DNA of 32,000 nucleotides from Vibrio vulnificus CMCP6 (GCF_000039765.1 NC_004460.2:960001-992000), one strand, 5' to 3'; counted from the stretch's first letter, positions 3,135-28,658 are shown. The notes: generated from the sequence alone by a model not told the origin. Numbers and translations: made by a program.

Positions 3135-3626
3135 TTAGCCCTTGGGCCAGACGCGATCCAAATCTTCCGCATACAAAGCTATGGCTCTTTGATAACCCAG
3201 AATGGCTTGAGATTGGGTCGTCTCCACCAGTAGATTGAGTAGCAACGCGGTCGATTGATGATGTTTGCCCAAGTTATAAAGGCACATTGCGTAGAACGGC
3301 ATCACTTCTCTTCGCTCAGGAAACTCTTGCAGCGTTTTCTCAAACCAGTTCAGTGCATCTTGATAGTCCCCTAAGCTTCTCAATGTACTGGCCAAACCAA
3401 ACAGGGCTTCAAAGCGGTCATCCCCCGTCAAGTTACCTTGTATTGCCGCCAAATAGTGAGGTACCGCTTGTGATTCCAAACCTTGATTATCATAGCTCCA
3501 AGCAATATGGAGATGCGCTAGCGCTTTGTAGTGCGCGTCTTGAAGCAAGGTGGTTAATTGCGCTCGGCTTTGATCGTATTGCCCAGCTTTTCTCAATTGG
3601 ATTGCGGATTGAATCACCTCATCCAT
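3135..3626 (-). CDS. tetratricopeptide-repeat protein
   Basis: 163 aa, all-helical, with repeated TPR-like units (AIQLRKAGQYDQSRAQL; LASTLRSLGDYQDALNWFEKTL; AMCLYNLGKHHQSTALL). Confidence 0.7.
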   Translation of the reverse strand: MDEVIQSAIQLRKAGQYDQSRAQLTTLLQDAHYKALAHLHIAWSYDNQGLESQAVPHYLAAIQGNLTGDDRFEALFGLASTLRSLGDYQDALNWFEKTLQEFPERREVMPFYAMCLYNLGKHHQSTALLLNLLVETTQSQAILGYQRAIALYAEDLDRVWPKG

Positions 3627-3799
3627 GCGAACTCCCCATTATTGTGCTCATCGTTGTTGAATTTTTGAATGATTGCCGTGAAACGAGCAGAGATCATTTT
3701 CCGCCTCCTCTCACAGTTGAGCCAAAACCTTGATTGACTCATCGCTAAAGTTCCATAAAACTTAGCTCAAAACATAACAAACTGCGATGTATTAAGGCC

Positions 3800-4696
3800 A
3801 TGGATAACCCGATCGACTTCAACTTATTGAAAGTATTTGTCACCGTGTATCGCCACCGTTCGATCACCTTGGCGGCTGACGCCATGGGGTTAACCCAGCC
3901 CGGCGTCAGTGGCATTTTAAAACGTCTACAAGAGCAACTTGGCGTCACCCTGTTTACTCGTGATGGCCGTGGAATTGCCCCCACACACCATGCACATGAG
4001 TTGGCTAGACAAGTCGAACCGGCGCTCAGCCAAATTCACAATGCTTTGGAAAGCCTAGAAGCCTTCCGCACCGACACCTACCGCAAGTTTGTCATTTATG
4101 CGCCAGAGCCTTTGATGCTAACACTGCTGCCTAAGATTGAAGGCGATTCGACACTGGGCAAAATCGACATCGAGCTTCAACACATGCCTTACGATGTAGA
4201 CGAACAGTTTACGCGTTTGAACCAACAGCAAGCGGATCTCGCGATTGATTTTGTGCACCATTCAGCCCCTTCTTTCTATTCAGAAAAGCTGATGAATGAT
4301 GAAATTTGCTTGATTGCACGGCGTGGGCACCCGCGTATTCAAGGGGCGATTAGCCGCGATGAGTATTACCAAGAGAAGCACATCACCTTAAAAATGCGTC
4401 GAGAAAATGTCTACCTCGCCGATTACTTTACCGAAGAGTTTCTCAACGTTAGACGGGTTGCGGCGGAATGCGATTCGATGGTGGCGCAGATGTCACTCGT
4501 TGCCACCAGCGATTGCATTGCCATGGTCACCCGCTCATTGGCGGAGCAATTTGCCGAGACACTGGGTTTGCAAGTTCTCCACTCTCCGATGACTGCTATT
4601 CCCATCACCTATCGGCTTCTCATCCATAACCGAGAGATCAACAGCCCTGCCAACCAATGGCTTCGTGAACGACTCAGTCGCTACTTTACTCAGTAA
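3800..4696 (+). CDS. LysR-family transcriptional regulator
   Basis: 298 aa. N-terminal wHTH LLKVFVTVYRHRSITLAADAMGLTQPGVSGILKRLQEQLGVTLFTR, followed by a substrate-binding domain of LysR length. ATG at 3800. Confidence 0.9.
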   Translation: MDNPIDFNLLKVFVTVYRHRSITLAADAMGLTQPGVSGILKRLQEQLGVTLFTRDGRGIAPTHHAHELARQVEPALSQIHNALESLEAFRTDTYRKFVIYAPEPLMLTLLPKIEGDSTLGKIDIELQHMPYDVDEQFTRLNQQQADLAIDFVHHSAPSFYSEKLMNDEICLIARRGHPRIQGAISRDEYYQEKHITLKMRRENVYLADYFTEEFLNVRRVAAECDSMVAQMSLVATSDCIAMVTRSLAEQFAETLGLQVLHSPMTAIPITYRLLIHNREINSPANQWLRERLSRYFTQ

Positions 4697-16600: not shown

Positions 16601-17224
16601 TTAAGCGATAATGCCCGCAACTTCGCGTACTAGCTTCGCTAGATCGTCCCATTGCTCGTTATCAATCAAATCACCCGGAACCATCCAAGTGCCACCACAC
16701 GCCAACACAGCAGGGATAGCAAGATAATCTTTGACGTTGCTTGGGCTAACGCCGCCCGTAGGCATAAATTTCACTGGGTAAACCGCCGTTAGCGCTTTCA
16801 GCATGTTCACGCCACCCGAAGGCTCTGCAGGGAAGAACTTCAGGGTACGTAGACCCATTTCCATCGCTTGTTCAACCAAACTTGGGTTGTTCACTCCCGG
16901 AACAATGGTCACATTGCGCTGTTGGCAATATTTCACTGTGGTTGGGTTGAAACCTGGGCTGACGATGAAATCCACACCGGCCTCAATCGCTTCATCCACT
17001 TGCGCAGAAGTCAGTACCGTACCTGCGCCAATCAGCATTTCTGGGTACGCTTCGCGCATGTTTTTGATTGCCAAAGCCGCATCTGCAGTACGGAACGTCA
17101 CTTCAGCACAAGGCAAGCCATTTTCAATCAGCACTTGCGCCAATTTTACCGCTTTGTTGGCATCTTTGATGGCGATAACCGGAACCACTTTGATTTCAGC
17201 AAGCTGTTGATTTAAATCTTTCAT
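16601..17224 (-). CDS. eda: KDPG/KHG aldolase (2-dehydro-3-deoxy-phosphogluconate aldolase)
   Basis: 207 aa. Class-I aldolase motifs VVPVI, EVTFRT, GAGTV, SPG and KFFPAE..GG. Confidence 0.9.
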   Translation of the reverse strand: MKDLNQQLAEIKVVPVIAIKDANKAVKLAQVLIENGLPCAEVTFRTADAALAIKNMREAYPEMLIGAGTVLTSAQVDEAIEAGVDFIVSPGFNPTTVKYCQQRNVTIVPGVNNPSLVEQAMEMGLRTLKFFPAEPSGGVNMLKALTAVYPVKFMPTGGVSPSNVKDYLAIPAVLACGGTWMVPGDLIDNEQWDDLAKLVREVAGIIA

Positions 17225-17236
17225 TTGTTTGAATCC

Positions 17237-18166
17237 TTAAATAGTTGGCATCGCTTCGCGAGGAATAATTGCGCCACGATGTTGAATAACATGACCTGCA
17301 ACAGTGTGACCAGCAAAAGCAGCTTGCTGACAATCACCACCCAAAATACGCTTTGCAAGATAGCCAGCACTGAATGAATCTCCCGCGGCGGTGGTGTCGA
17401 CAACATGGTCAATTTTGAGTGGCGCAACCGCATGACGGCCCGCTTCTGTAACGACAAAACACTCATCCCCACCACGTTTGATGACGATTTCACTCACACC
17501 AAACCCCTTGGTGCGCTCAATCGCTTGATCTTCATGGGTATCGCCCCACAACAGCATCTCATCATCAAAGGTGAGAAATGCCATATCGGTGACTTGCAGA
17601 ATTTGCTGGTAGAACGCTTGTGCGTCCGCCACGTTGCTCCACAGCGCAGGGCGGAAGTTATTATCAAACGCGATTTTCACCCCATCACTGCGGCAAAGCG
17701 CGAGCAGTTTGATCAGCGCTTCACGGCAATCTTGCGACAGTATCGCCAAGCTGATACCACTGAGGTAAATCATTTGATGCTGACACAGCTCTTTCGCCAG
17801 CGTCAGGATGGCACGGTCACGCAGCCAGTATTTCGCCGCCGAATCGTTGCGCCAGTAGAAGAAGCTACGCTCACCATTGTCTGCCGTTTCGATGGCATAA
17901 ATGCCTGGCAATTTGTCTTGAGAAAGGTACACCATGTCCGTGTTAATACCTTCGTCTTGCCATGCGGCAAGCATTTCTCGGCTAAATGGATCCTGTCCTA
18001 ATCCCGTAACATAAGAGGTTGAAACACCGGATTGCTGGGTCAAACGGGAAAGGTAAACTGCGGTGTTGAGTGTATCCCCACCAAAACCTTGTTGTAGCTC
18101 GCCGTTGACCTTTTTCAGTTCAACCATGCATTCGCCAATAATGGCAACGCGATTGATGTGATTCAT
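17237..18166 (-). CDS. kdgK: 2-dehydro-3-deoxygluconokinase (PfkB family)
   Basis: ATG at 18166 with AAGGAG 8 nt upstream. MNHINRVAIIGECMVEL..., GGDTLNTAVYLSRL, and the C-terminal DTTAAGDSFSAGYL PfkB signature. The track ORF extending to 18223 is an upstream extension. Confidence 0.9.
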   Translation of the reverse strand: MNHINRVAIIGECMVELKKVNGELQQGFGGDTLNTAVYLSRLTQQSGVSTSYVTGLGQDPFSREMLAAWQDEGINTDMVYLSQDKLPGIYAIETADNGERSFFYWRNDSAAKYWLRDRAILTLAKELCQHQMIYLSGISLAILSQDCREALIKLLALCRSDGVKIAFDNNFRPALWSNVADAQAFYQQILQVTDMAFLTFDDEMLLWGDTHEDQAIERTKGFGVSEIVIKRGGDECFVVTEAGRHAVAPLKIDHVVDTTAAGDSFSAGYLAKRILGGDCQQAAFAGHTVAGHVIQHRGAIIPREAMPTI

Positions 18167-18221
18167 AGGATGTCTCCTTAACGTAATTGCTGCTATTATT
18201 ACAGCAACAAAACCATGAGAC

Positions 18222-18250
18222 AATATTTTTAAAACAATGGTTCAATTATT
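18222..18250. promoter_or_regulatory. candidate KdgR box upstream of kdgK
   Basis: aatatttttaaaacaatggttcaattatt shares its left half (aatattttt.aaa) with the perfect palindrome at 27713..27743. It is a degenerate dyad. Confidence 0.3.
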
Positions 18251-18346
18251 CGTGAGCAAGATCCAACTCTGCAGTTTTGGCAGGTTCGAGTTCTACCGCT
18301 CTCTGATAGCATCACGCCACTGACCTTATTCACCACACTCGCCACA

Positions 18347-19261
18347 ATGCTGGCAGTAGACGAGCCTTTAGCACTTCATATCATGAACAACCCAACCGTT
18401 TCTCGCGCCATCTTTCTACTGGTGACGGCCAATTTGCTTGCTTCCCTCTCGGATGTGTCACTCAAAATACTCAATGGCGAAGTGCCGACGTTTCAATATG
18501 TGTTTATTCGCCAGTCGATCAGCCTAGTGCTGCTATTGCCTTTCTGGCTTCGTCTGGAGAAATCGCAGTGGGAAAAGGGCTGCGACTGGATCACCTTTTG
18601 GCGCGCGCAACTGATCTTGCTCGGCAGCGCGTGCGCGATGATAGCGATCACCCATTTGCCACTGGCGACCGCCAATGCCATGTTCTACGTTGGCCCACTG
18701 CTGGTATTGCCTCTGGCTTTTGTCTTTTTGGGGGAACGCCCTGCCGCAGGAAAAATTGTTGCAACGTTATTGGGCTTTGTTGGTGTGCTGATTGTGCTGC
18801 GCCCAGAGCAGTTTCATTGGGCAGCGATTGTGGCATTGGGCAGCGCGTTATCCATGGGCGTGGGTAATATTCTGATCCGCAAAGTACCTGCCGATCAGTC
18901 GCTGATTTCCACGCTTTTTTGGACGACCTTAATGACGCTGCCCTTTGCTTTTGCCCTCGCCTACTGGCAATGGAGCGCGATTCGCTTCGAGCATATTTTA
19001 TGGATTGTGGCGATCAATCTGTTTGTACTCGCCTACCACGCTTTGGTGGTGAAGGCATTTCAGCAAGCTCCGGCAAGCCAGATCGCTCTGGCCGAATATT
19101 CTGGCTTAGCGTTTGTCACCTTCTTTGGGGTGATTTGGTTTGATGAAGTGCCAGACAGTTACACCGTTTTAGGCATTCTACTGATCATTGTGCCTATGAT
19201 GCCCATCCGCTGGAAACATTGGCTTAAGGGCAAAAGACGCACAGCGGTGAGTAAGGGTTAA
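18347..19261 (+). CDS. DMT-superfamily (EamA-type) transporter
   Basis: 304 aa, about 10 TM helices, two EamA-like halves. The start is ambiguous, either ATG 18347 or ATG 18383. Confidence 0.8.
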   Translation: MLAVDEPLALHIMNNPTVSRAIFLLVTANLLASLSDVSLKILNGEVPTFQYVFIRQSISLVLLLPFWLRLEKSQWEKGCDWITFWRAQLILLGSACAMIAITHLPLATANAMFYVGPLLVLPLAFVFLGERPAAGKIVATLLGFVGVLIVLRPEQFHWAAIVALGSALSMGVGNILIRKVPADQSLISTLFWTTLMTLPFAFALAYWQWSAIRFEHILWIVAINLFVLAYHALVVKAFQQAPASQIALAEYSGLAFVTFFGVIWFDEVPDSYTVLGILLIIVPMMPIRWKHWLKGKRRTAVSKG

Positions 19262-19304: not shown

Positions 19305-19558
19305 GTTGTTGGACATTTTTAATTTGACACCGACGGACTAACTTTCACCCTATTAATAACTTTTAGTATCCAAAAGCACAATCAGGTACTGTTTATCACT
19401 GTTCCTGAGATTCAAAGAAATGGACAAAAACTTCCATCTTCAACCAGTTGTGTTAGATTCATATTATGCACTTTTTCAGCATAACATGCAGATCATCCTT
19501 AGAAATACTTGTCCCCTGAAGTAAATTTCAACTCAAATCGAAACTTATAAATAAATCA

Positions 19559-22174
19559 TTAAAAAACCTCTAAGATTTTCTTATAAGTCTCGTGTGTGAC
19601 AATACTACGGCCTTCAGACAAGAGAAAGTTCTTCAGAACGTCGTAAGCTAGCGGATTATTGCCAATTTCTCTGGCCAATTGCTCAGGTATTATTCCTTTT
19701 GAATCTTCAATTTTTAGTAGCCCAGGTTTCTTTTCAATTAATAGTTCAATTATAGGCAGATCACCCATGCGAATAGCCGTATGTAACGCTGTTTCACCTT
19801 CTTCGTTAATTAACGTCGCATCACAACCATGCTCTAGTATGAGATAAGCTGATTTTAAGCATCGACTAGCTGCTGCTGCATGTAGGGCGGTTCTACCCGT
19901 GAAATCTTGAAGATTCGGATCTGCGTTTGCTTTTAGTAATGCTTCTACCGTTTGATGATCTCTGTTGTTTGCAGCTAACATCAAAGGTGTCTGGAGTTTA
20001 AAGTCAGTTATATTAACGATTTCTGGCCATAATTCGATGATTTTCCTGATGCCTGTAACCATCGCACTAAATACATTACTAACTTCATTAGCAATATCGA
20101 CTTGTACCATCTGTTTATAAGAATTTAATTTAGCACGCATTTCATAGCTCATCTTCATCATTAGCAAAATGATGCTATCTGCTTGTGGATATTTCAGTTG
20201 TTTATTTTTTAAATCTTTGTGTTTTTTAAGTACTAGCTCAATAGAATATCCATTTTTTATACACTCTGCGAAATCACGACTAAACTTTCCCATATCGCTA
20301 GAACAAGAAGAAAAAAGCGGTTGATAGTTAGGATAGCATTGATACAACTTGTCCCAAAAATACTCATGTAACTCACGCGAAACGTCATAAATATTAGATT
20401 CTACTTTCAGTCCACCCCAGTAGTACATGTCTCTAAAGTACTTTTCGTGATTATTAGGAATGAGTTTTTGGTTTGCTATAGCCAATGAGAATGCATCTCT
20501 AGCTAACAATCCTCTAAACTTTCCAAAGCTGTATTTCTTACATTCATCGATAGCCAAATTAAGATTTTTTTCTGCTTCTTTAAGCTTGTTCTGCGCAATA
20601 TAATGAAGTGCTTCATAACGTAGTATATTTGCTTTTGAAAATTTAAAATCATCACAGTTTTTCGCCTCATCTAGTAAAGCAGATACTTTTTCTTCGGTTT
20701 TTGAACCAAACTTCTTAAGGAGTAGATGAGTTTCTAGTTCAAATAATATTCGCCTCATCGACTCTGTAGGCGTGGCTTCTAAAGATTTTAACCTTTCAAC
20801 AATCATTTCACCTATATTAGGATTTGAATATTGATTCATCTGAACGATTCTAGCCCCATATACTAGCTCAAAATCATCAATATTCTGTAATTGTTTAAAT
20901 GGAGCTTTGTTTTGTTTTAGTTTATCTATTAAAACATCTCTACGCATAAGGTAATTATTTGAATAATCACCTTCTTCTTTTATAAGTTTACACATTTTTT
21001 CAAATTCATCTTGAGACGTAGGAAAGACATTATCTAATATATCCTCTTCTCCAGAACGGCTAAAAATACAATTAATTCTATCTAAAGCACTCCATGGGAT
21101 ATCGTGTTCATTGTCTGTGGTAAAAAGTCGTAATAAATCATACCTATAAAAGGAAGGAAGTTGTTCTTCAAAATACTTATTTTCCGCATGGTATCCTAAA
21201 CTTCCCTTTTGAATATGAGCTTTAAAAGTTATATTATATACGTAGTTGTAAAGTTCAACTAATTGGAGTGTTTTATTTTCATTTAAGTCAAAACATAGCT
21301 TATCGACTCCAGGTGTTAAATACTTAACTAATTGCTCATACCCCTCTTGAATAGCTCTGGCTATCAGCAACCTCATACGTATCACTTCAGAGCTTGGTGC
21401 CTGATATCGTACTTTTAGTTTCTGTACAAAATCTTGCTGCTCCGCTGCTGGGCATTCACTCCTTATTATTCGCTTTAAGTCTTCACAATCAATAGCTATT
21501 TCATGCTGTAAGTCTTCATAAGACAAACCTTTTTTTTCAATAAACTCCAGAGCCTGTTCAAATTGCGAAGACTTTTCATCAGGCTCAAAGCAGCCACAAA
21601 ATTGTATATTCACTTTATCGAGGAACAGATTATTAATACTTGATACTTCAGGAGTACTCTTGGCTTTTTTCCAATTGTAAAGGTTCTTTAACACTGTACC
21701 GTGGCCATCATGAATTTTTAGATCTTTTTCCAAATTGCTAGCAATAGATTCATGAGTTCCTTGAATTAAATCGATGAGCCAATTCAAGACTCGCGGTACA
21801 GGGAGAAGAAGCTGCTTAGGTTCAATCGTAGAGTCTACGGCAGGAAGATACCAAAACCGTCCGCCAGGCATACCCTCATCCATTTTTGATTCAATTTGCC
21901 AAAATACCGTATGTCTCGCTAGAGCTGGTATGATAACCCTGGCTAAATAATGCCAAACGATTTTTCTTTGTGACGCCTTTGAAGAATAAACATTAAGCTC
22001 GATGTTCTTATGCATCAAGTAATCGTCTGCAACATTGGAGGTCAGATCTTTTTTCGCTCTTTCATCAAGCCCTAAAGCATCCGCTATATCATCCAAAATA
22101 CTTTCCCAAGTATTAGATAAATTATCCATCGTCATCTCGACATATTTAAACTTGCTTTTCGATTTTGACGTCAT
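19559..22174 (-). CDS. large helical-repeat protein with C-terminal ankyrin repeats, function unknown
   Basis: A long uninterrupted ORF in AT-rich DNA. Ankyrin repeats lie at about 19660..19990 (TPLMLAANNRDHQTVEALLKANADPNLQD / GRTALHAAAASRCLKSAYLILEHGCDATLIN / GETALHTAIRMGDLPIIELLIEK). A TPR-like segment is KANILRYEALHYIAQNKLKEAEKNLNLAIDECKK. I see no P-loop or obvious catalytic motif. The start is uncertain: the first ATG is at 22174, but the frame stays open to a GTG at 22384. Confidence 0.8.
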   Translation of the reverse strand: MTSKSKSKFKYVEMTMDNLSNTWESILDDIADALGLDERAKKDLTSNVADDYLMHKNIELNVYSSKASQRKIVWHYLARVIIPALARHTVFWQIESKMDEGMPGGRFWYLPAVDSTIEPKQLLLPVPRVLNWLIDLIQGTHESIASNLEKDLKIHDGHGTVLKNLYNWKKAKSTPEVSSINNLFLDKVNIQFCGCFEPDEKSSQFEQALEFIEKKGLSYEDLQHEIAIDCEDLKRIIRSECPAAEQQDFVQKLKVRYQAPSSEVIRMRLLIARAIQEGYEQLVKYLTPGVDKLCFDLNENKTLQLVELYNYVYNITFKAHIQKGSLGYHAENKYFEEQLPSFYRYDLLRLFTTDNEHDIPWSALDRINCIFSRSGEEDILDNVFPTSQDEFEKMCKLIKEEGDYSNNYLMRRDVLIDKLKQNKAPFKQLQNIDDFELVYGARIVQMNQYSNPNIGEMIVERLKSLEATPTESMRRILFELETHLLLKKFGSKTEEKVSALLDEAKNCDDFKFSKANILRYEALHYIAQNKLKEAEKNLNLAIDECKKYSFGKFRGLLARDAFSLAIANQKLIPNNHEKYFRDMYYWGGLKVESNIYDVSRELHEYFWDKLYQCYPNYQPLFSSCSSDMGKFSRDFAECIKNGYSIELVLKKHKDLKNKQLKYPQADSIILLMMKMSYEMRAKLNSYKQMVQVDIANEVSNVFSAMVTGIRKIIELWPEIVNITDFKLQTPLMLAANNRDHQTVEALLKANADPNLQDFTGRTALHAAAASRCLKSAYLILEHGCDATLINEEGETALHTAIRMGDLPIIELLIEKKPGLLKIEDSKGIIPEQLAREIGNNPLAYDVLKNFLLSEGRSIVTHETYKKILEVF

Positions 22175-22290
22175 CTGACCATTAGCGCCAAGCGCTTTAG
22201 CAATCTGAAGAAGTACCGATTCGAAGGTTGGAAAAGTAGCCACTGAATGTCCTTTTATTGTTTCGTTTTCCGCTAGAAAAAGAAAATTGA

Positions 22291-22299
22291 GGGGGGGGG
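22291..22299. repeat. G9 homopolymer tract (C9 on the minus strand)
   Basis: Nine consecutive G in an otherwise AT-rich stretch, 72 nt upstream of the pVip ATG. The tract lies inside the optional N-terminal extension of the ankyrin ORF, where it is read as TCC CCC CCC CTC. Confidence 0.95.
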
Positions 22300-22371
22300 A
22301 TGTTGCTTTTCCTTTTTCTACAGAGCCGATTTTATCATACTGAAGCCATCTGAATACCTGAGAATAAAAGC

Positions 22372-23289
22372 ATGACAACAGCACAATCTAGAAAAACAAA
22401 AGAACTGGTAATCAATTGGCACATGACAGAAGTCTGCAATTACAGTTGTAAATACTGTTTTGCAAAATGGGGACGCCCCAAAGAACTCCATCGTTCAGAA
22501 CAGGCAATCGATAACTTATTGGATAAGCTAGCAGACTACTTCATCAAAGGCACTCCAGTCTTAAAAGAAAAGCTGGGGTACGAAAGTGTTCGTCTTAACT
22601 TTGCAGGAGGGGAACCAATGATGTTAGGAAATACGTTCGTTACCGCTTTGGTTCTTGCAAAACAAAAAGGATTTAAAACCTCAACCATAACTAATGGACA
22701 TTACCTAATTCATGGAAAATCACCGTTGCCGAAAGATACTTTAGACATGATTGGAATCAGCTTTGACAGTCAGTACTTAAGTACACGTATGAAAATAGGA
22801 AGAAACGATCGAAAAGGAAACTCTTTTGGCGTTAATGATTTAACACATGCTCTAGCGAGACTCACACAGTCACAAACAGGAATCAAAACAAAGATTAATA
22901 CTGTAATTAACAGTCTTAATTGGGAAGAGGATTTCACTAATTTAATTTCTAGTCTAAATCCATACAAATGGAAAGTGTTACAGGTCATGCCTTATGGTGA
23001 TAATGAACTACTAATTTCCAAAGAACAGTTCGATAATTTTGTTCATAGACATAGTGGATTAGGATTACCTATTTATTTTGAGTCTAATTCTACTATGACA
23101 GAATCATACTTAATGATTAGTCCAGAGGGTTGCTTTTACCAAAACACTGCCAATAAATCTGGGTATAAATACAGCGAATGCATTAATTCATGCGGTGTGG
23201 AAAAAGCTCTTTCTCAAATAGAGTTTAATCCAATTACGTTTGCTTCAAGATATAAAAAAACTAATATTGACATTGTAGATGTATCATAA
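22372..23289 (+). CDS. viperin-like radical-SAM enzyme (prokaryotic viperin, pVip-type)
   Basis: 305 aa. INWHMTEVCNYSCKYCF contains the CxxxCxxC cluster in the viperin context N.H.T..CNY.C.FCF. NFAGGEPM is the SAM-binding GGEP motif. ITNG, ISFDS, KINTVINSLNWEEDF and LNPYKWKVLQVM follow, and ESYLMISPEGCFYQN is at the C-terminus. These are colinear with human viperin motifs as I recall them (NFSGGEPF, VSNGS, ISCDSF, KINSVINRFNVEEDM, LNPVRWKVFQCL, DSYLILDEYMRFLN). Confidence 0.85.
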   Translation: MTTAQSRKTKELVINWHMTEVCNYSCKYCFAKWGRPKELHRSEQAIDNLLDKLADYFIKGTPVLKEKLGYESVRLNFAGGEPMMLGNTFVTALVLAKQKGFKTSTITNGHYLIHGKSPLPKDTLDMIGISFDSQYLSTRMKIGRNDRKGNSFGVNDLTHALARLTQSQTGIKTKINTVINSLNWEEDFTNLISSLNPYKWKVLQVMPYGDNELLISKEQFDNFVHRHSGLGLPIYFESNSTMTESYLMISPEGCFYQNTANKSGYKYSECINSCGVEKALSQIEFNPITFASRYKKTNIDIVDVS

Positions 23290-23374
23290 AATCTTTTAAC
23301 AAAAATGAAACAAATAAACTAGATTCCTTATTATAGGAGCTATAAATAATCACAAAATATTAGATGAGGAACAA

Positions 23375-23992
23375 GTGAATAAATTTATCGTTTTTGAAGG
23401 GTTAGATGCATGTGGGAAAACAACATTAAGCTCTATATATGCGAAAGAAATGAATACTATCGTTCATAATGCGGTAGTCCCTGAAGCTCATGATCTAAGA
23501 AAGGTCATTGACTCCTATGAGTCAAAAGAGAGTGCATTTCTATTTTTTTTGTTAAATAATTTATTGAAGAGTAACGATGTTTCGAAATTATTAAACGATG
23601 AAGATGTCATATTAGATAGATATGTATTTTCAACTTTGGCCTACCAAACAATTATGCTTGGGGAAGATATTGTCAAAAATATTTTTGACACACTTAAAAT
23701 TAATAAAAAAATACTTCTTCCAGAAGTGATAATTTTTGTTAAAGCTGATATTGAAACAATAAACAACAGAATAGAGGCCAGAGGTGGCACAGTTCAGTGG
23801 TACGGCGATGCAGTTACGCAAAATAATAGTGTTGAATCAGCATATCACAAAGTTTTTAAGTGGTTTGATATTCCAATTGTAGAGGTCGATACATCAGAAA
23901 AATATGGCCGTTCGGTAGAAGAAAATTACCTACTAATGAAAGAACAGGTCGAGCACGTTCTTTCGGGAGGGAGTAATTTTTACAGTTTCTAG
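23375..23992 (+). CDS. thymidylate-kinase-fold nucleotide (NMP) kinase
   Basis: 205 aa with GTG start and GAGGA 7 nt upstream. P-loop IVFEGLDACGKTT (Tmk: EGxxGxGKTT), the Tmk-type LDRYVFSTLAYQ (Tmk: DRhxxStxAYQ), and a LID-like NNRIEARGG. The NMP-binding region is divergent, so substrate cannot be assigned. Confidence 0.8.
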   Translation: MNKFIVFEGLDACGKTTLSSIYAKEMNTIVHNAVVPEAHDLRKVIDSYESKESAFLFFLLNNLLKSNDVSKLLNDEDVILDRYVFSTLAYQTIMLGEDIVKNIFDTLKINKKILLPEVIIFVKADIETINNRIEARGGTVQWYGDAVTQNNSVESAYHKVFKWFDIPIVEVDTSEKYGRSVEENYLLMKEQVEHVLSGGSNFYSF

Positions 23993-24355
23993 TTCAATAT
24001 CTCTCGGTGATATTGTATGAACATGCAGACGTAAATTACTGGTAAAGAAAGCCGTTTCTACTTATGTTTGGACGAAAGAGAGGACTACTGCTCCGTGATC
24101 CGAAATAAGCAAATGTAAGGTGAGATCCTGGCTAGATTGAAATGCAACTTATTGCGCAAACTCATATAGGGGCAATTTCGTGTTACATACCCCGTCAGCA
24201 CACCTTTGGACAAAGACGTACTATCACCTTTGCTAAATTAGCAATTAATGAATAAATGTAGGTATGGAAAGTAGTTAACTTTATGCCCAATATCAATGGT
24301 GCAGATCACTGATTACATTTACCTTAAACGATAATGCCTCACCTTACCCAACACA

Positions 24356-24393: not shown

Positions 24394-24960
24394 TTATCTT
24401 GTTATCCGAATACGAGTTTCTAACGTTTCCTCGTAAATATCTTCAACATGATAAGGCTCTATCGGTTCATTAGAAATAAGCCATTCACCTATGATTAAAT
24501 CGTCTTCCGTTTTGATCGAAATACAATTGCCATCAACAAGCACAATGTTGAAGCCAAAGTCATAAATGACAACCTCTGAAGAAGGGATAAAGACTTTAAA
24601 GTTTTCTTTTACTGCTTTACGACTGCGTAACCTAACGACTTCTATAAATTCTATTGCCTTAGATTCTTCGAAAAGCTTTACCTCCTCAAGTTGCCCTGCC
24701 TTAACGTCTTTTGGGTTCAATTCATGAATAAATCTTGCAATAGGCAAATGAAAGTCATGACCTTGAGGGCTGGTATACCAATCGTTGCTTAACTCAATAA
24801 AACCGGTAGGTATCTGGAAAAATAAAGAATACAGGCTCGTCACTGTATTCGATTCAAAGCTAGTGCCCTCACTGCTCGCCATCACTTTACATTTTAGCCC
24901 TATGATGGATCGCAGTGCCTGTATAGATTCACCATCCATCTGATAATTTAGCGTTTCCAT
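24394..24960 (-). CDS. hypothetical protein (islet orphan)
   Basis: 188-aa ORF with an ATG start in AT-rich DNA, where long ORFs are unlikely by chance. No signal peptide, TM segment or motif that I recognise. Confidence 0.55.
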   Translation of the reverse strand: METLNYQMDGESIQALRSIIGLKCKVMASSEGTSFESNTVTSLYSLFFQIPTGFIELSNDWYTSPQGHDFHLPIARFIHELNPKDVKAGQLEEVKLFEESKAIEFIEVVRLRSRKAVKENFKVFIPSSEVVIYDFGFNIVLVDGNCISIKTEDDLIIGEWLISNEPIEPYHVEDIYEETLETRIRITR

Positions 24961-25307: not shown

Positions 25308-25943
25308 TTAGTCGATCAGCGAGCGTACGTACTCAGCGATTTCTGGCACTTGGCAGTTTGCGAAGAAGCACTCTTGGAATTGCGCACCGCCAACCGCTGT
25401 TTTCACCAACTCTTGGTCAATTGCACGTAGGCCTTCAACCACATCTTTCGCAACCGCTGCTTTTACGTTGTTTAGGATCGCCGCATTCGCTTGCTGTGGT
25501 GCCGCACGCTCAATTGGGTAACCTTCACCACGGTTACCAGTGAACGCTTTTTCGAAGATGTAACGGACATTGAGCTCGCCCGCCCAGCCAAAACCTTTTG
25601 CAAACGCGAGAGAAATAGCATTGCCGTTGTTGATTTGGTTGAACAAAAAAGCATCTGACGGCTCTAGGCAGTAGCCACATACCACGCCTGGGTGTAGGTT
25701 GCTCGACATCATTGCGCCTTGGCCAGTGCCACAACCGGTTACCACAAAGTCTACCGCTTTTGAGTTCAGTAGAATGCTTGCCATGATGCCTAGGTGGATG
25801 TAAGTCAGGTGATGGTCATTTTCATCTTTCATGCCGACGTTGAATACGTCGTGGCCTAGGCCACCTGCTACGCTGTTAAGCTCTGCTGCAACCATCGCGT
25901 TTTTCGGTGCTTGGCTGTTTTCCATCATTAGTGCAATTTTCAT
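25308..25943 (-). CDS. RpiB/LacA/LacB-family sugar(-phosphate) isomerase; possibly the 4-deoxy-L-threo-5-hexosulose-uronate isomerase of this pathway (DhuI-like)
   Basis: 211 aa with the RpiB-fold core (MKIALMMEN..., VVTGCGTGQGAMMSSN). It is the last gene of the kduD operon. The family call is firm; the pathway role is inferred from context. Confidence 0.75.
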   Translation of the reverse strand: MKIALMMENSQAPKNAMVAAELNSVAGGLGHDVFNVGMKDENDHHLTYIHLGIMASILLNSKAVDFVVTGCGTGQGAMMSSNLHPGVVCGYCLEPSDAFLFNQINNGNAISLAFAKGFGWAGELNVRYIFEKAFTGNRGEGYPIERAAPQQANAAILNNVKAAVAKDVVEGLRAIDQELVKTAVGGAQFQECFFANCQVPEIAEYVRSLID

Positions 25944-25983
25944 CTGTTACTCCCGCGGTCAAACCGCAATTCAAAAATAAATC

Positions 25984-26304
25984 TTAAACGAAATCTTTAC
26001 GCATTGGGGTGAAGGTATCAATCAGTACACCCGCTTCTAGACAAACACAGCCATGTTCGACGTTTGGCTCTTTGTACATAGTATCGCCTGTTTTGACGAT
26101 TTTTTTCTCATCGCCAATGGTGAATTCAAACTCACCCGATAACACATAAGTCAATTGCTCATGGGGATGTGAGTGCATGGCACCAATCGCGCCAGTTTCA
26201 AAATGCACTTCCACCGACATCATGTTGTCGCTGTGTGCCAGCACTTTGCGTGAAATGCCTTGGCCAAGATCTTCCAGCGTAATGTCTTGATTAAATACAA
26301 ACAT
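25984..26304 (-). CDS. kdgF: cupin-domain protein (KdgF-like)
   Basis: 106 aa. Cupin motifs GAIGAMHSHPHEQ and GDTMYKEPNVEHG, in the pectin/uronate operon context. Confidence 0.75.
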   Translation of the reverse strand: MFVFNQDITLEDLGQGISRKVLAHSDNMMSVEVHFETGAIGAMHSHPHEQLTYVLSGEFEFTIGDEKKIVKTGDTMYKEPNVEHGCVCLEAGVLIDTFTPMRKDFV

Positions 26305-26324
26305 GCTTCACCTATCTGTCTGTT

Positions 26325-26837
26325 TTACTCGTTAATCGGCACCAAATGCTGCCGATGTAACCGATAAATCGTGATGAGGTTGGTGGCGATCACTGTCATC
26401 TCTAACAAGGTGCCACCAATGGAACCCACTAAAATGTTATTGATTAACCAGCAGGTCGCTCCAACCAGAAAACCAATCCGCATGCGGATGCCGTTCAACA
26501 CGAATAATGAATAGGTGCCAATCACTGTCCCTAGAATTGGCCATAATTCCCACCAGTGTTGCGCCATCCACACGCCGCTAGTAACACCGATGACAATAAA
26601 GAATGCGGCTACCCATCTCGAGGAGGTAAAGATCGAGGTGGTGGTGCGTAATGCAGAAAGCAGCGCACTGAGTGCAGATACCATCGATCCTAGCAGCAAA
26701 AAATGGAGAAGATGATTGAGATTGAACACCAACATCAGGATTTTCAAATGCCTGTCATTTTTCTGGTAAAAGGTGGAGATTCCCAAACCAAAACTGAGAA
26801 ACCCTAACGCTTGTGCCAAATCAATCTCGACCATCAT
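26325..26837 (-). CDS. YgjV-family inner-membrane protein
   Basis: 170 aa, about 5-6 TM helices. Its size and context, next to hexuronate genes as in E. coli ygjV, support the call. Confidence 0.65.
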   Translation of the reverse strand: MMVEIDLAQALGFLSFGLGISTFYQKNDRHLKILMLVFNLNHLLHFLLLGSMVSALSALLSALRTTTSIFTSSRWVAAFFIVIGVTSGVWMAQHWWELWPILGTVIGTYSLFVLNGIRMRIGFLVGATCWLINNILVGSIGGTLLEMTVIATNLITIYRLHRQHLVPINE

Positions 26838-26852
26838 CTTCTCACAATTAGG

Positions 26853-27614
26853 TTAGCGTGATAGCCAGCCACCATCTACCGCAACGGTGTAACCGTTAAT
26901 GTAGTCAGACGCTTTCGACGCAAGGAACACACAAGGACCAGCCAAATCTTCCGGCGTGCCCCAACGGTTTGCAGGAATGCGCTCTAGGATTTCTTGGTTG
27001 CGTTGCTCATCAGCACGCAGTGCCGCTGTGTTGTTGGTTGCCATGTAGCCCGGTGCAATCGCATTCACGTTGATACCGTGTTTTGCCCACTCGTTTGCCA
27101 TAAGGCGAGTCACACCCATTACGCCACTCTTAGACGCAGTGTATGAAGGCACGCGGATACCACCTTGGAAAGAAAGCATGGATGCGATGTTGATGATCTT
27201 GCCGCCTTCGCCTTGTGCAATAAATTGTTTCGCCACCGCTTGAGACATAAAGAACACGGATTTGATGTTGATGTTCATAACGTCATCCCAATCTTGCTCA
27301 GAGAACTCGATCGCGTCGTTGCGGCGGATGATGCCTGCGTTGTTCACCAAAATGTCGATGCGGCCAAGCTCAGTCACTGCGCGATCAACGATTGAAGGAA
27401 TATCATCTAGTTTCATTAGGTTAGCGCGGATATCGACGAACTTACGTCCCGTCGCTTGGATTTTTTCCATTGTTTCTGTTGGTTCACTGATGTTCACACC
27501 AACGATATCGCAACCTGCCTTTGCTAAACCCAGCGCCATGCCTTGACCTAAACCGGTGTCACACCCCGTGACGACTGCTACTTTGCCTTGCAAGCTAAAT
27601 GAATCAAGAATCAT
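26853..27614 (-). CDS. kduD: 2-dehydro-3-deoxy-D-gluconate 5-dehydrogenase (SDR)
   Basis: MILDSFSLQGKVAVVTGCDTGLGQGMALGLAKAGCDIVGVNI is near-identical in pattern to the E. coli KduD N-terminus. YTASK catalytic motif. I chose the ATG at 27614 (AGAGGA 8 nt upstream) over 27623. Confidence 0.9.
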   Translation of the reverse strand: MILDSFSLQGKVAVVTGCDTGLGQGMALGLAKAGCDIVGVNISEPTETMEKIQATGRKFVDIRANLMKLDDIPSIVDRAVTELGRIDILVNNAGIIRRNDAIEFSEQDWDDVMNINIKSVFFMSQAVAKQFIAQGEGGKIINIASMLSFQGGIRVPSYTASKSGVMGVTRLMANEWAKHGINVNAIAPGYMATNNTAALRADEQRNQEILERIPANRWGTPEDLAGPCVFLASKASDYINGYTVAVDGGWLSR

Positions 27615-27712
27615 GTAATGCATCCTCTAGAATACTGAAAGAAGTGAACCGACGTTTTGGTTGTTGTTCACTGTGGTAGGATAAACATAACAGCAAAATG
27701 GCTACGCTCGCA

Positions 27713-27743
27713 AATATTTTTGAAAAGACGTTTCAAAAATATT
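27713..27743. promoter_or_regulatory. candidate KdgR operator: perfect 13-bp inverted repeat with 5-bp spacer
   Basis: aatatttttgaaa-agacg-tttcaaaaatatt lies in the kduD/kdgR divergent intergenic region. It contains the TGAAA-N5-TTTCA core of KdgR boxes. A weaker second dyad, tttcaaaattatgaaa, is at 27784..27799. Confidence 0.55.
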
Positions 27744-27842
27744 GATGGATGTCTTATTTTACTAAAACGAACTAAGTGAGCGGTTTCAAAATTATGAAAA
27801 GGTATTTTAAAAATAGTGGTGATACAGAAAATCAACGATATA

Positions 27843-28658
27843 ATGGCAAAAAACACAACTAAAGAAGGGAAAACAATGGAAAAGTCGACACAGCCAGAAG
27901 CTGTTTCGTCAGTGATGAAGGTGTTCCACATCCTTCAAGCACTGGGTGAGCAGAAGGCTATTGGCGTATCAGAATTGTCGCAACGTCTTATGATGTCTAA
28001 GGCAACCACTTACCGTTTTTTACAAACCATGAAGTCACTTGGGTATGTTTCTCAAGAAGGCGAAGCGGATAAGTATTCACTCACTTTAAAAGTGTTTGAG
28101 CTGGGTGCTCGCTCACTGGAATACGTTGATCTGATCGAATTGGCCGACAAAGAAATGCGCCAAATCTCTCAACTGACCAATGAAGCGCTTCACTTAGGTG
28201 CACTCGATGAGAACGCGATCATCTACATCCATAAGATTGATTCCGGTTACAACCTGCGCATGCAATCGCGCATTGGCCGTCGTAACCCTCTTTACAGTAC
28301 TGCTATTGGCAAAGTGTTGCTTTCCGAACGTGAAGAGAGCTTTATCCGTGAATCTCTTGCCGATGTTGAATTCATCAAACATACAGAAAAAACACTAGAA
28401 AACACGGAACAAGTGCTTGAAGAACTGGCGAAAGTGCGTGAACAGCATTTTGCAGAAGATAACGAAGAGCAAGAACCGGGTTTACGTTGTATCGCGGCTC
28501 CGATTTATGATCGTTTTGGTCAAATCATTGCGGCGGTATCTATCTCGTTCCCAACCATTCGTTTTGATGAAGAGCGCAAAGATTACTATGTGGGTCTGCT
28601 TCATCAAGCGGGTAAGAACGTTTCTGAGCAGCTTGGCTACCACAGCTACCCTGCTTAA
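27843..28658 (+). CDS. kdgR: IclR-family repressor KdgR
   Basis: ATG at 27843 (MAKNTTKEGK...). The segment SSVMKVFHILQALGEQKAIGVSELSQRLMMSKATTYRFLQTMKSLGYVSQEGEADKYSLTLKVFELG is colinear with E. coli KdgR as I recall it. Confidence 0.9.
   Translation: MAKNTTKEGKTMEKSTQPEAVSSVMKVFHILQALGEQKAIGVSELSQRLMMSKATTYRFLQTMKSLGYVSQEGEADKYSLTLKVFELGARSLEYVDLIELADKEMRQISQLTNEALHLGALDENAIIYIHKIDSGYNLRMQSRIGRRNPLYSTAIGKVLLSEREESFIRESLADVEFIKHTEKTLENTEQVLEELAKVREQHFAEDNEEQEPGLRCIAAPIYDRFGQIIAAVSISFPTIRFDEERKDYYVGLLHQAGKNVSEQLGYHSYPA

Follow-up and report, generated by a model that had tools for sequence, protein, structure and literature searches.

A Large Helical and Ankyrin-Repeat Protein Encoded Back-to-Back with a Prokaryotic Viperin in Vibrio vulnificus: A Candidate Accessory Component of the pVip Antiviral Cassette

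Results

The Large Gene and Its Cassette

We analyzed a 32,000-nt stretch of the Vibrio vulnificus CMCP6 genome (NC_004460.2:960001-992000; hereafter the window, in whose numbering all positions given without a locus name are counted), in particular a large gene encoding a helical protein that ends in ankyrin repeats. This gene lies back-to-back with the gene for a prokaryotic viperin (pVip), which is followed by a gene for the viperin-associated kinase VakA, and the three form a mobile cassette (Table 1). The pVip was recognized by the PADLOC model for pVips "associated with kinases" (9e-127), by NCBIfam NF038283 viperin_w_prok (327.7 bits against a cutoff of 180) and by Pfam Radical_SAM. VakA was recognized by PADLOC (5.7e-73) and by Pfam Thymidylate_kin (58.4 bits against a cutoff of 27), while its score for dTMP kinase, 78.9 bits, fell slightly below the cutoff of 83.25.

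Table 1. Features of the large gene, its control region, and the cassette in the window (aa, amino acids; a dot marks features to which no strand is assigned)
Feature	Position	Strand	Basis or remark
Helical/ankyrin gene (PADLOC "Ankyrin" family)	19559..22243	-	PDLC02908, E = 0, 1312.6 bits; 49 close clusters with the same first residue
N-terminal family-specific domain, aa 1 to ~370	21134..22243	-	Best-conserved part of the family
Central helical-repeat region, aa ~384-742	20018..21094	-	Helix pairs in models; TPR/solenoid likeness generic
C-terminal ankyrin repeats: three canonical (aa 750-848) plus degenerate cap (aa 849-880)	19604..19996	-	Pfam, PDB, model, sequence
Divergent control region between large gene and pVip, 128 bp	22244..22371	.	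Two blocks and homopolymer at fixed spacing, 17 aligned loci
Poly-C tract, C9 in the sense of the large gene and G9 in that of pVip	22291..22299	-	47 nt upstream of the start codon
Conserved block ATGAAAAG, in the window AGGAAAAG	22306..22313	-	Column conservation; putative role
Conserved block AGTAT; in pVip sense nATACT/CATAAT, candidate pVip -10	22336..22341	+	Invariant or near-invariant columns; putative assignment
pVip, prokaryotic viperin, radical SAM enzyme, 305 aa, CNYSCKYC motif	22372..23289	+	PADLOC, NCBIfam, Pfam
VakA, viperin-associated nucleotide kinase, thymidylate-kinase-like, 205 aa	23375..23992	+	PADLOC, Pfam
Mobile three-gene cassette (large gene, pVip, VakA)	19309..24174	.	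Low GC; span shared with L001

The original prediction, made from the sequence alone, had described an open reading frame (ORF) of 941 aa at 19559..22384 on the minus strand, and this ORF was found exactly there. The true gene is shorter, with 894 aa (its coordinates include the stop codon) and a start at GTG 22243, which is V48 of the long ORF; the real start thus lies 141 nt inside it, and the first 47 codons are non-genic. A Shine-Dalgarno sequence, AAAGGA, lies 6 nt 5' of this GTG; the sequence M/V/L-ATFPTFES at its position is the N terminus of all 35 aligned homologues; and the PADLOC model PDLC02908 begins at the same residue. With this start, the large gene and pVip are separated by an intergenic gap of 128 bp instead of overlapping. 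The argument that so long a frame encodes a real protein held up, the chance of 894 stop-free codons at the gene's composition being ~1e-31, while the GC content, previously put at about 30%, was measured at 35.7%.

The protein matched PDLC02908, named "Ankyrin" in PADLOC-DB v2, from end to end, residues 49-941 of the long ORF aligning with model positions 2-880 of 880. This model is numbered among the pVip, pVip-kinase and VakA models (PDLC02903-02911), and its entry carries no description. The large gene is therefore a member of an already catalogued PADLOC family of uncharacterized function, and no paper connecting pVip or viperin with an ankyrin partner was found in the literature searched.

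A word-indexed search returned the 49 close clusters of Table 1, at 44-93% identity, from Vibrio, Photobacterium, Aliivibrio and marine metagenomes. An exhaustive search with a profile of the N-terminal 742 aa returned 252 representatives (clustered at 50%), of which 141 had E 1e-30 or better; Marinobacter, Azoarcus and Halodesulfovibrio are among the named members. The survey of homologues and their genomic contexts that the original prediction had proposed thus extends over Vibrionaceae, Marinobacter, Azoarcus, Acinetobacter plasmids and Halodesulfovibrio. For 95 representatives the alignment spanned most of the profile; 55 of these have 800 aa or more, and 39 have fewer than 700 aa. Ankyrin repeats were present in all nine longer forms checked (730-1042 aa). 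The forms below 700 aa cover profile positions 1 to ~640 only, and the single one checked had no ankyrin repeats; short members (~650 aa) also lack the last ~100 aa of the central helical region. Because the short forms end at profile position ~640 and the one checked is ankyrin-less, the family core is, on the evidence of these alignments, the N-terminal ~640 aa, to which the ankyrin cap is an optional addition.

No match to the family was found in 50,697 phage records, and plasmid carriage was restricted to remnants truncated by insertion sequences (IS) on Acinetobacter plasmids that lack pVip. IS-broken copies of the large gene were seen at L038 (1-3167), L009 (7001-9238), L010 (7001-9237) and L011 (6001-6426); one of them lies in a complete Vibrio genome beside intact pVip and VakA, while others are on Acinetobacter plasmids from which pVip has gone.

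Linkage to pVip

To quantify the association with pVip, we counted only loci that had been fetched through the large gene and that retained its intact 5' end and upstream sequence (n = 20). In 19 of these 20 loci a pVip gene was divergent from the large gene at a distance of 107-187 bp, across a range of large-protein identity from 92% down to 30%. The linked loci include an ankyrin-less form of 649 aa (L012, 32% identity) and a form of 821 aa (L014, 30%); in the window the distance is 128 bp. The sole exception, L019, carries a 51-aa ORF (3587-3911) where pVip would be expected, beside Tn7-like (TnsD/TniQ-like) genes, and keeps the control region together with a C10 tract. Everything else around the pair varies from locus to locus and includes integrases, Tn7-like genes, type I restriction-modification genes, reverse transcriptase-like genes and AAA_13 with NYN genes.

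The two proteins also diverge together. Identities to the window's large protein and pVip fall in parallel (92/97, 65/75, 58/69, 51/64, 48/65 and 45/59%, respectively), the large protein diverging faster than pVip. The dependence is one-way, since pVips of the same clade are also found without the large gene.

The cassette itself bears the marks of transfer. Over 4,878 bp it is 95.6% identical to an unrelated Vibrio contig (L001), and the similarity stops outside this span; at 35.1% GC it is also poorer in G and C than the remainder of the window (48.2%), where it has been inserted among genes of sugar-acid metabolism. The link to horizontally acquired genes mentioned in the original prediction is thus borne out by a low-GC cassette of 4.9 kb that recurs at an unrelated genomic location.

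Protein Architecture

An AlphaFold2 model built from a 36-sequence alignment was all-alpha, with a predicted local distance difference test score (pLDDT) of 82.4 and a predicted TM-score (pTM) of 0.73, and contained only three strands of 1-2 residues each, in agreement with the all-helical fold anticipated earlier. That prediction's ~800 aa of unassignable helical sequence also held in kind, the region being both helical and unassigned, with its length corrected to ~745 aa.

The N-terminal domain carries the motif RH.VFWQ..SK.D.GMPGG.FWYLP...LP.P.VL.WL. In 96 divergent representatives, conservation of at least 90% was found at W97, P106, R110, W115, M125, P126, F130, W131, L133, P134, P148, W155, W191, R279, P283, A295, R296, Q299, Y302, N323 and Q327. 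Positions conserved to this degree cluster at aa 90-360 and are mostly aromatic, proline, glycine or aliphatic (W, P, F, M, L, Y, A, V, G), together with three arginines, two glutamines and one asparagine; no conserved constellation of H, D, E, C, K or S was present across the same 96 representatives.

Pfam assigned no family to the N-terminal 742 aa in any of 13 members, NCBIfam had none for the N-terminal region, and PADLOC offered nothing there beyond the family model itself. A PDB sequence search with the N-terminal profile found no relative, the best match being a designed helical protein at E 0.043, and Foldseek gave no match at E 0.001 or better against either PDB or BFVD. The best Foldseek matches in PDB (APC5, PlcR, Rap, MamA, kinesin light chain and IFIT1) were generic TPR or solenoid proteins with TMq of at most 0.2; TPR proteins headed the list at E 0.02 or worse, with TM-scores of at most 0.48. 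The TPR-like stretch read by eye in the original prediction therefore finds weak support, from these matches and from TPR_10 and TPR_2 in two of 13 members (E ~0.08, below cutoffs).

The 894-aa protein contains no Walker A motif, and the search for cryptic enzyme folds with AlphaFold2 and Foldseek yielded none for the helical region. As far as these methods can test it, the earlier statement that P-loop, nuclease, protease, TIR and SIR2 signatures are missing was upheld, with no Walker A, Pfam, PDB-profile or Foldseek match to any of them. A sensor of the STAND/NLR type (Avs, bNACHT) was likewise considered and rejected: the central P-loop NTPase of such proteins was not found, there being no Walker A motif and no NTPase family in the protein.

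The C-terminal repeats are secure. Ank_2 scored 67.1 bits against a cutoff of 27.3 (2.2e-18), Ank 60.6 against 21.1 (in three stretches) and Ank_5 56.6 against 27. Matches to ankyrin proteins and DARPins in PDB were restricted to this region, where the model shows the periodicity of helix pairs. The three or four repeats that had been predicted are thus three canonical repeats followed by one degenerate capping repeat.

The Control Region and Its Poly-C Tract

The region between the large gene and pVip contains two conserved blocks, which precede a homopolymer at fixed spacing (Table 1). In 17 of 19 loci, six or more consecutive C occupy the corresponding site, and the remaining two carry CCCCTCCCC(C). 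The background frequency of such runs in the rest of these loci, 7.4e-5 per bp, predicts 0.012 per region. The tract, 6-12 nt long, and both blocks are conserved even in relatives that are only ~30% identical and belong to several bacterial orders (equivalent control-region positions were located in L001-L008, L012, L014, L016-L025 and L032-L039). By comparison, the tract and the blocks are both missing upstream of pVips that have no large gene beside them.

In eight assemblies with an identical pVip protein, the tract was 9, 9, 9, 10, 10, 10, 10 and 11 nt long, while 1,680 flanking nucleotides differed by 0-3 mismatches. Such variation is a signature of slipped-strand mutation, with homopolymer sequencing error possibly contributing in part. 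Since the promoter region shared by the two genes holds a slippage-prone poly-C tract, expression of the large gene is probably phase-variable, with tract length presumably acting on expression.

Three readings of the conserved sequences can be put forward, each as a candidate. First, ATGAAA may be the -35 element of the large gene, which would place the tract inside the promoter spacer (8-9 nt plus n gives 15-20). Second, the ATG of ATGAAAAG may be the start of a leader ORF, M-K-(S/R/K)-x-(V/I)-P-P-(P). At 23 of 25 loci such an ORF can be read, and tract length determines both its frame and how far it extends. In three of them, L001 (C8; 9932-10000), L036 (C11) and L012 (C6), it joins the main ORF in frame. 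Third, the ATGAAAAG block may be an upstream site of the pVip promoter. In the window, where the corresponding sequence spans 22244-22313 on the minus strand, AGG (22311-22313) stands in place of the block's ATG, so that the leader start (or the -35 element) is altered here. A consensus promoter scan found no sigma-70-like site in the window's intergenic region. Scanning IMG/VR for the motif ATGAAAAG-N4-GT-C6 produced a single match, which was unrelated and is attributed to chance.

Neighboring Genes

The third gene of the cassette differs between loci: the window, L001 and L017 have VakA, and most other loci have a gene for a Cys-rich protein of ~117 aa. This protein (~93-129 aa), encoded 3' of pVip in most relatives, has two C..C...WHL(S/T) motifs and is treble-clef-like; it also occurs beside pVips that have no large gene, and it gave no PADLOC match and no Pfam match above cutoff. 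Its ORFs were seen at L002 8464-8817 (-), L006 6600-6950 (-), L004 749-1099 (-), L008 6568-6921 (-), L026 5928-6284 (+) and L031 5963-6319 (+).

Upstream of one V. parahaemolyticus pVip that has no large gene, and on its strand, lies a gene for a 723-aa protein without family assignment (L030/L031, 2709-4880 (+)), in an element with integrase, AlpA and primase-like genes. This protein was ruled out as a divergent member of the family, as it did not match the family hidden Markov model. The large partners of pVip may be interchangeable.

In the window, the cassette is flanked by ordinary genes: on the left (16601-19261) a KDPG aldolase-like gene, identified by eye, a PfkB kinase and an EamA transporter, and on the right (25308-28658) RpiB-like, cupin, YgjV, short-chain dehydrogenase and IclR-type regulator genes. 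Just past the cassette, in DNA of 39% GC, lies a 188-aa ORF (24394-24960, minus strand) that is not present in L001 and that neither Pfam nor PADLOC nor NCBIfam recognized; this ORF may be island cargo in its own right. No credible Rfam match to a structured RNA was found in the island. In Vibrio genomosp. F10 (L002, 13040-15612 (+)), proteins of 298 aa and 558 aa (the latter with YVDD) are encoded 3' of the large gene and, by eye, resemble a defense module of the reverse-transcriptase type.

Discussion

The original prediction saw a real protein with no evident function. As regards the helical region, to which no family or fold could be assigned, that description stands; for the gene as a whole it does not, since the divergent pVip in 19 of 20 loci and the PADLOC "Ankyrin" family place it in antiviral defense. 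A well-known family unrelated to defense was looked for, and none claimed the protein.

We favor, with a probability of roughly 55%, the reading that the large gene encodes a dedicated accessory protein of the pVip antiviral cassette. The protein would combine three parts, the family-specific N-terminal domain, the TPR-like helical region and the optional ankyrin cap, into a cytoplasmic, non-enzymatic, all-alpha repeat scaffold working through protein-protein contacts, whether as regulator, as sensor or as adaptor of pVip. VakA would supply the nucleoside triphosphate (NTP) to pVip; pVip would convert it into chain-terminating 3'-deoxy-3',4'-didehydro-nucleoside triphosphates (ddhNTPs); and the large protein would govern the timing or the strength of this step, being itself expressed from a promoter region that its gene and pVip share back-to-back. 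We base this scaffold role on the all-alpha repeats, the dependence on pVip, the faster divergence relative to pVip and the divergent, shared control region. That the protein is most likely non-enzymatic follows from the lack of a conserved catalytic signature, the missing Walker A motif and the all-alpha fold. Its physical or regulatory coupling to pVip is suggested by comparative genomics, and its repeats may sense a ligand.

Several observations weigh against this reading. The large gene and pVip are divergent and not co-operonic, which is unusual for stoichiometric partners. pVips 64-69% identical to that of the window exist without the large gene in Shewanella, Pseudoalteromonas and the V. 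parahaemolyticus element; because such same-clade pVips occur without it, the large gene is not required for pVip chemistry. In Bernheim et al. 2021, pVips expressed by themselves, possibly including Vibrio ones, reportedly protected E. coli. No DNA-binding or ligand-binding domain was identified in the protein, and the fold searches used an N-terminal-only model of moderate quality (pLDDT 70.9). The differences in tract length between assemblies could partly be homopolymer sequencing error, and the link between the protein and pVip is one that we infer from comparative genomics throughout.

A bolder version, in which the locus would supply a missing control layer of viperin immunity, strikes us as rather unlikely. 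Here a sensor or regulator would gate ddhNTP production, and its own synthesis would be set by a hypermutable poly-C tract that acts either as a promoter spacer or within a poly-proline leader, MK(S/R)x(V/I)PPP. The leader could read translation stress, and the defense would then be both phase-variable and infection-responsive.

An unlikely alternative to an accessory protein of the cassette, though the first among the competing explanations, is a transcription factor of the RRNPP/PlcR type, with a helix-turn-helix (HTH) and TPRs, that would bind the intergenic region and switch pVip, perhaps when its repeats bind a peptide or a phage protein. The divergent geometry of a regulator and its target, kept down to 30% identity, speaks for this explanation; the conserved intergenic blocks travel with the large gene only; and PlcR and Rap were the Foldseek matches of highest probability (0.85-1.0), albeit at E 0.05 or worse and with TMt of at most 0.41. 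What weighs against it is the DNA-binding part. Residues ~225-262, "KKGLSYEDLQHEIAIDCEDLKRII", resemble an XRE-type HTH by eye and form short helices in the model, but Pfam found no HTH in this segment in nine members, a 44-sequence profile of it retrieved no HTH protein from PDB at E up to 10, and hhalign gave probabilities of 0.1-0.4% against two XRE-type antitoxins. This lead, which came from reading the sequence, was accordingly dropped.

It is quite unlikely, in our view, that the gene is independent defense or island cargo whose position beside pVip reflects the shared accumulation of genes in defense islands, with no functional coupling. The flanks are indeed those of typical defense and mobile islands, from type I restriction-modification, Tn7-like and integrase genes to reverse transcriptase-like genes and AAA_13 with NYN, and a same-clade pVip can do without the large gene. 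However, 19 of 20 loci keep the neighbor, its orientation and its distance although their other surroundings differ, the two proteins co-diverge, a conserved control region is common to both genes, the cassette transfers as a unit, and an intact family member is essentially never found without pVip in the loci examined.

We regard as very unlikely a cryptic enzyme acting on nucleotides, for instance one that would shield the host by hydrolyzing or sequestering ddhNTP, or that would alter the substrate or product of pVip. The dependence on the presence of pVip would suit such an enzyme, as would the polar residues that are invariant in the close family, including H78, H111, H547, H599, H626, H675, D122, D369 and D689; yet these residues vary across the wider family, the all-alpha fold matches no enzyme, and no nucleotide-binding motif is present. 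Finally, a secreted effector acting against a eukaryotic host, as in Legionella and Coxiella and in keeping with the host-interaction link of ankyrin repeats drawn in the original prediction, is most improbable despite the repeats themselves and weak NCBIfam matches to the AnkY, AnkH, AnkX and AnkG models, since these matches reach only 25-39 bits against cutoffs of 500-1400 and are restricted to the repeats, the neighbors of the large gene in the window are metabolic with no secretion-system genes near it, an antiviral enzyme, pVip, accompanies it in 19 of 20 loci, and about 40% of the family representatives lack the repeats, to judge by their length (39 of 95 are <700 aa; the one checked is ankyrin-less).

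Viperins are antiviral enzymes common to bacteria and to human innate immunity. The large protein, in which no enzymatic signature was seen and whose gene hardly ever occurs apart from pVip, is a clear candidate for the missing control or targeting component of viperin defense. Accessory genes of pVip are unsurprising in themselves; it is the near-obligate linkage, the lack of a known fold and the hypervariable control element that make viperin regulation testable. The tract in the control region is the most promising lead, and stochastic switching of a small-molecule immune pathway would, if true, be new for this class of defense. Beyond this cassette, the N-terminal domain of ~640 aa represents a sizeable family (at least 252 clusters at 50% identity) for which no Pfam or NCBIfam model or structural relative was found. 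A 2026 review gives the activation signal of viperin defense as "Unknown" (PMC13276650).

Comparison with Known Systems

The closest known counterpart is the PADLOC "Ankyrin" family itself, PDLC02908, which the protein matches over its full length and with the same pVip and VakA neighbors; no structural difference was seen. The bacterial viperin system has been summarized as pVip alone or pVip with a kinase (bioRxiv 10.1101/2023.09.13.557418; PMC13276650). The locus in the window resembles this system in that its pVip scores above the NCBIfam viperin equivalog cutoff and is recognized by the PADLOC pVip models, and in that the optional kinase, VakA, is present. It differs by a third, much larger, non-enzymatic gene that is divergent from pVip and has a control region in common with it; moreover, the kinase is the variable part, its place being taken by the ~117-aa Cys-rich protein in most relatives.

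In the RRNPP family, repeats bind a ligand and control an output. The large protein shares with PlcR and Rap an all-helical repeat architecture, and these gave its best, non-significant Foldseek matches; yet it has no detected HTH, is much larger, and carries both an N-terminal domain without counterpart and an ankyrin cap, and it is not a member of that family.

Homopolymers underlie phase variation at several loci, among them the poly-C of Bordetella fim, the poly-C/G of Neisseria opc and porA, and the divergent promoter of Haemophilus hif. As at these loci, the window has a C/G homopolymer in the promoter or 5' region between divergent genes, and its length varies among otherwise identical strains. 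Unlike typical contingency loci, however, the tract keeps the same position across relatives of 30% identity from several orders, which is unusual for such loci, and it can also be read as part of a poly-proline leader ORF.

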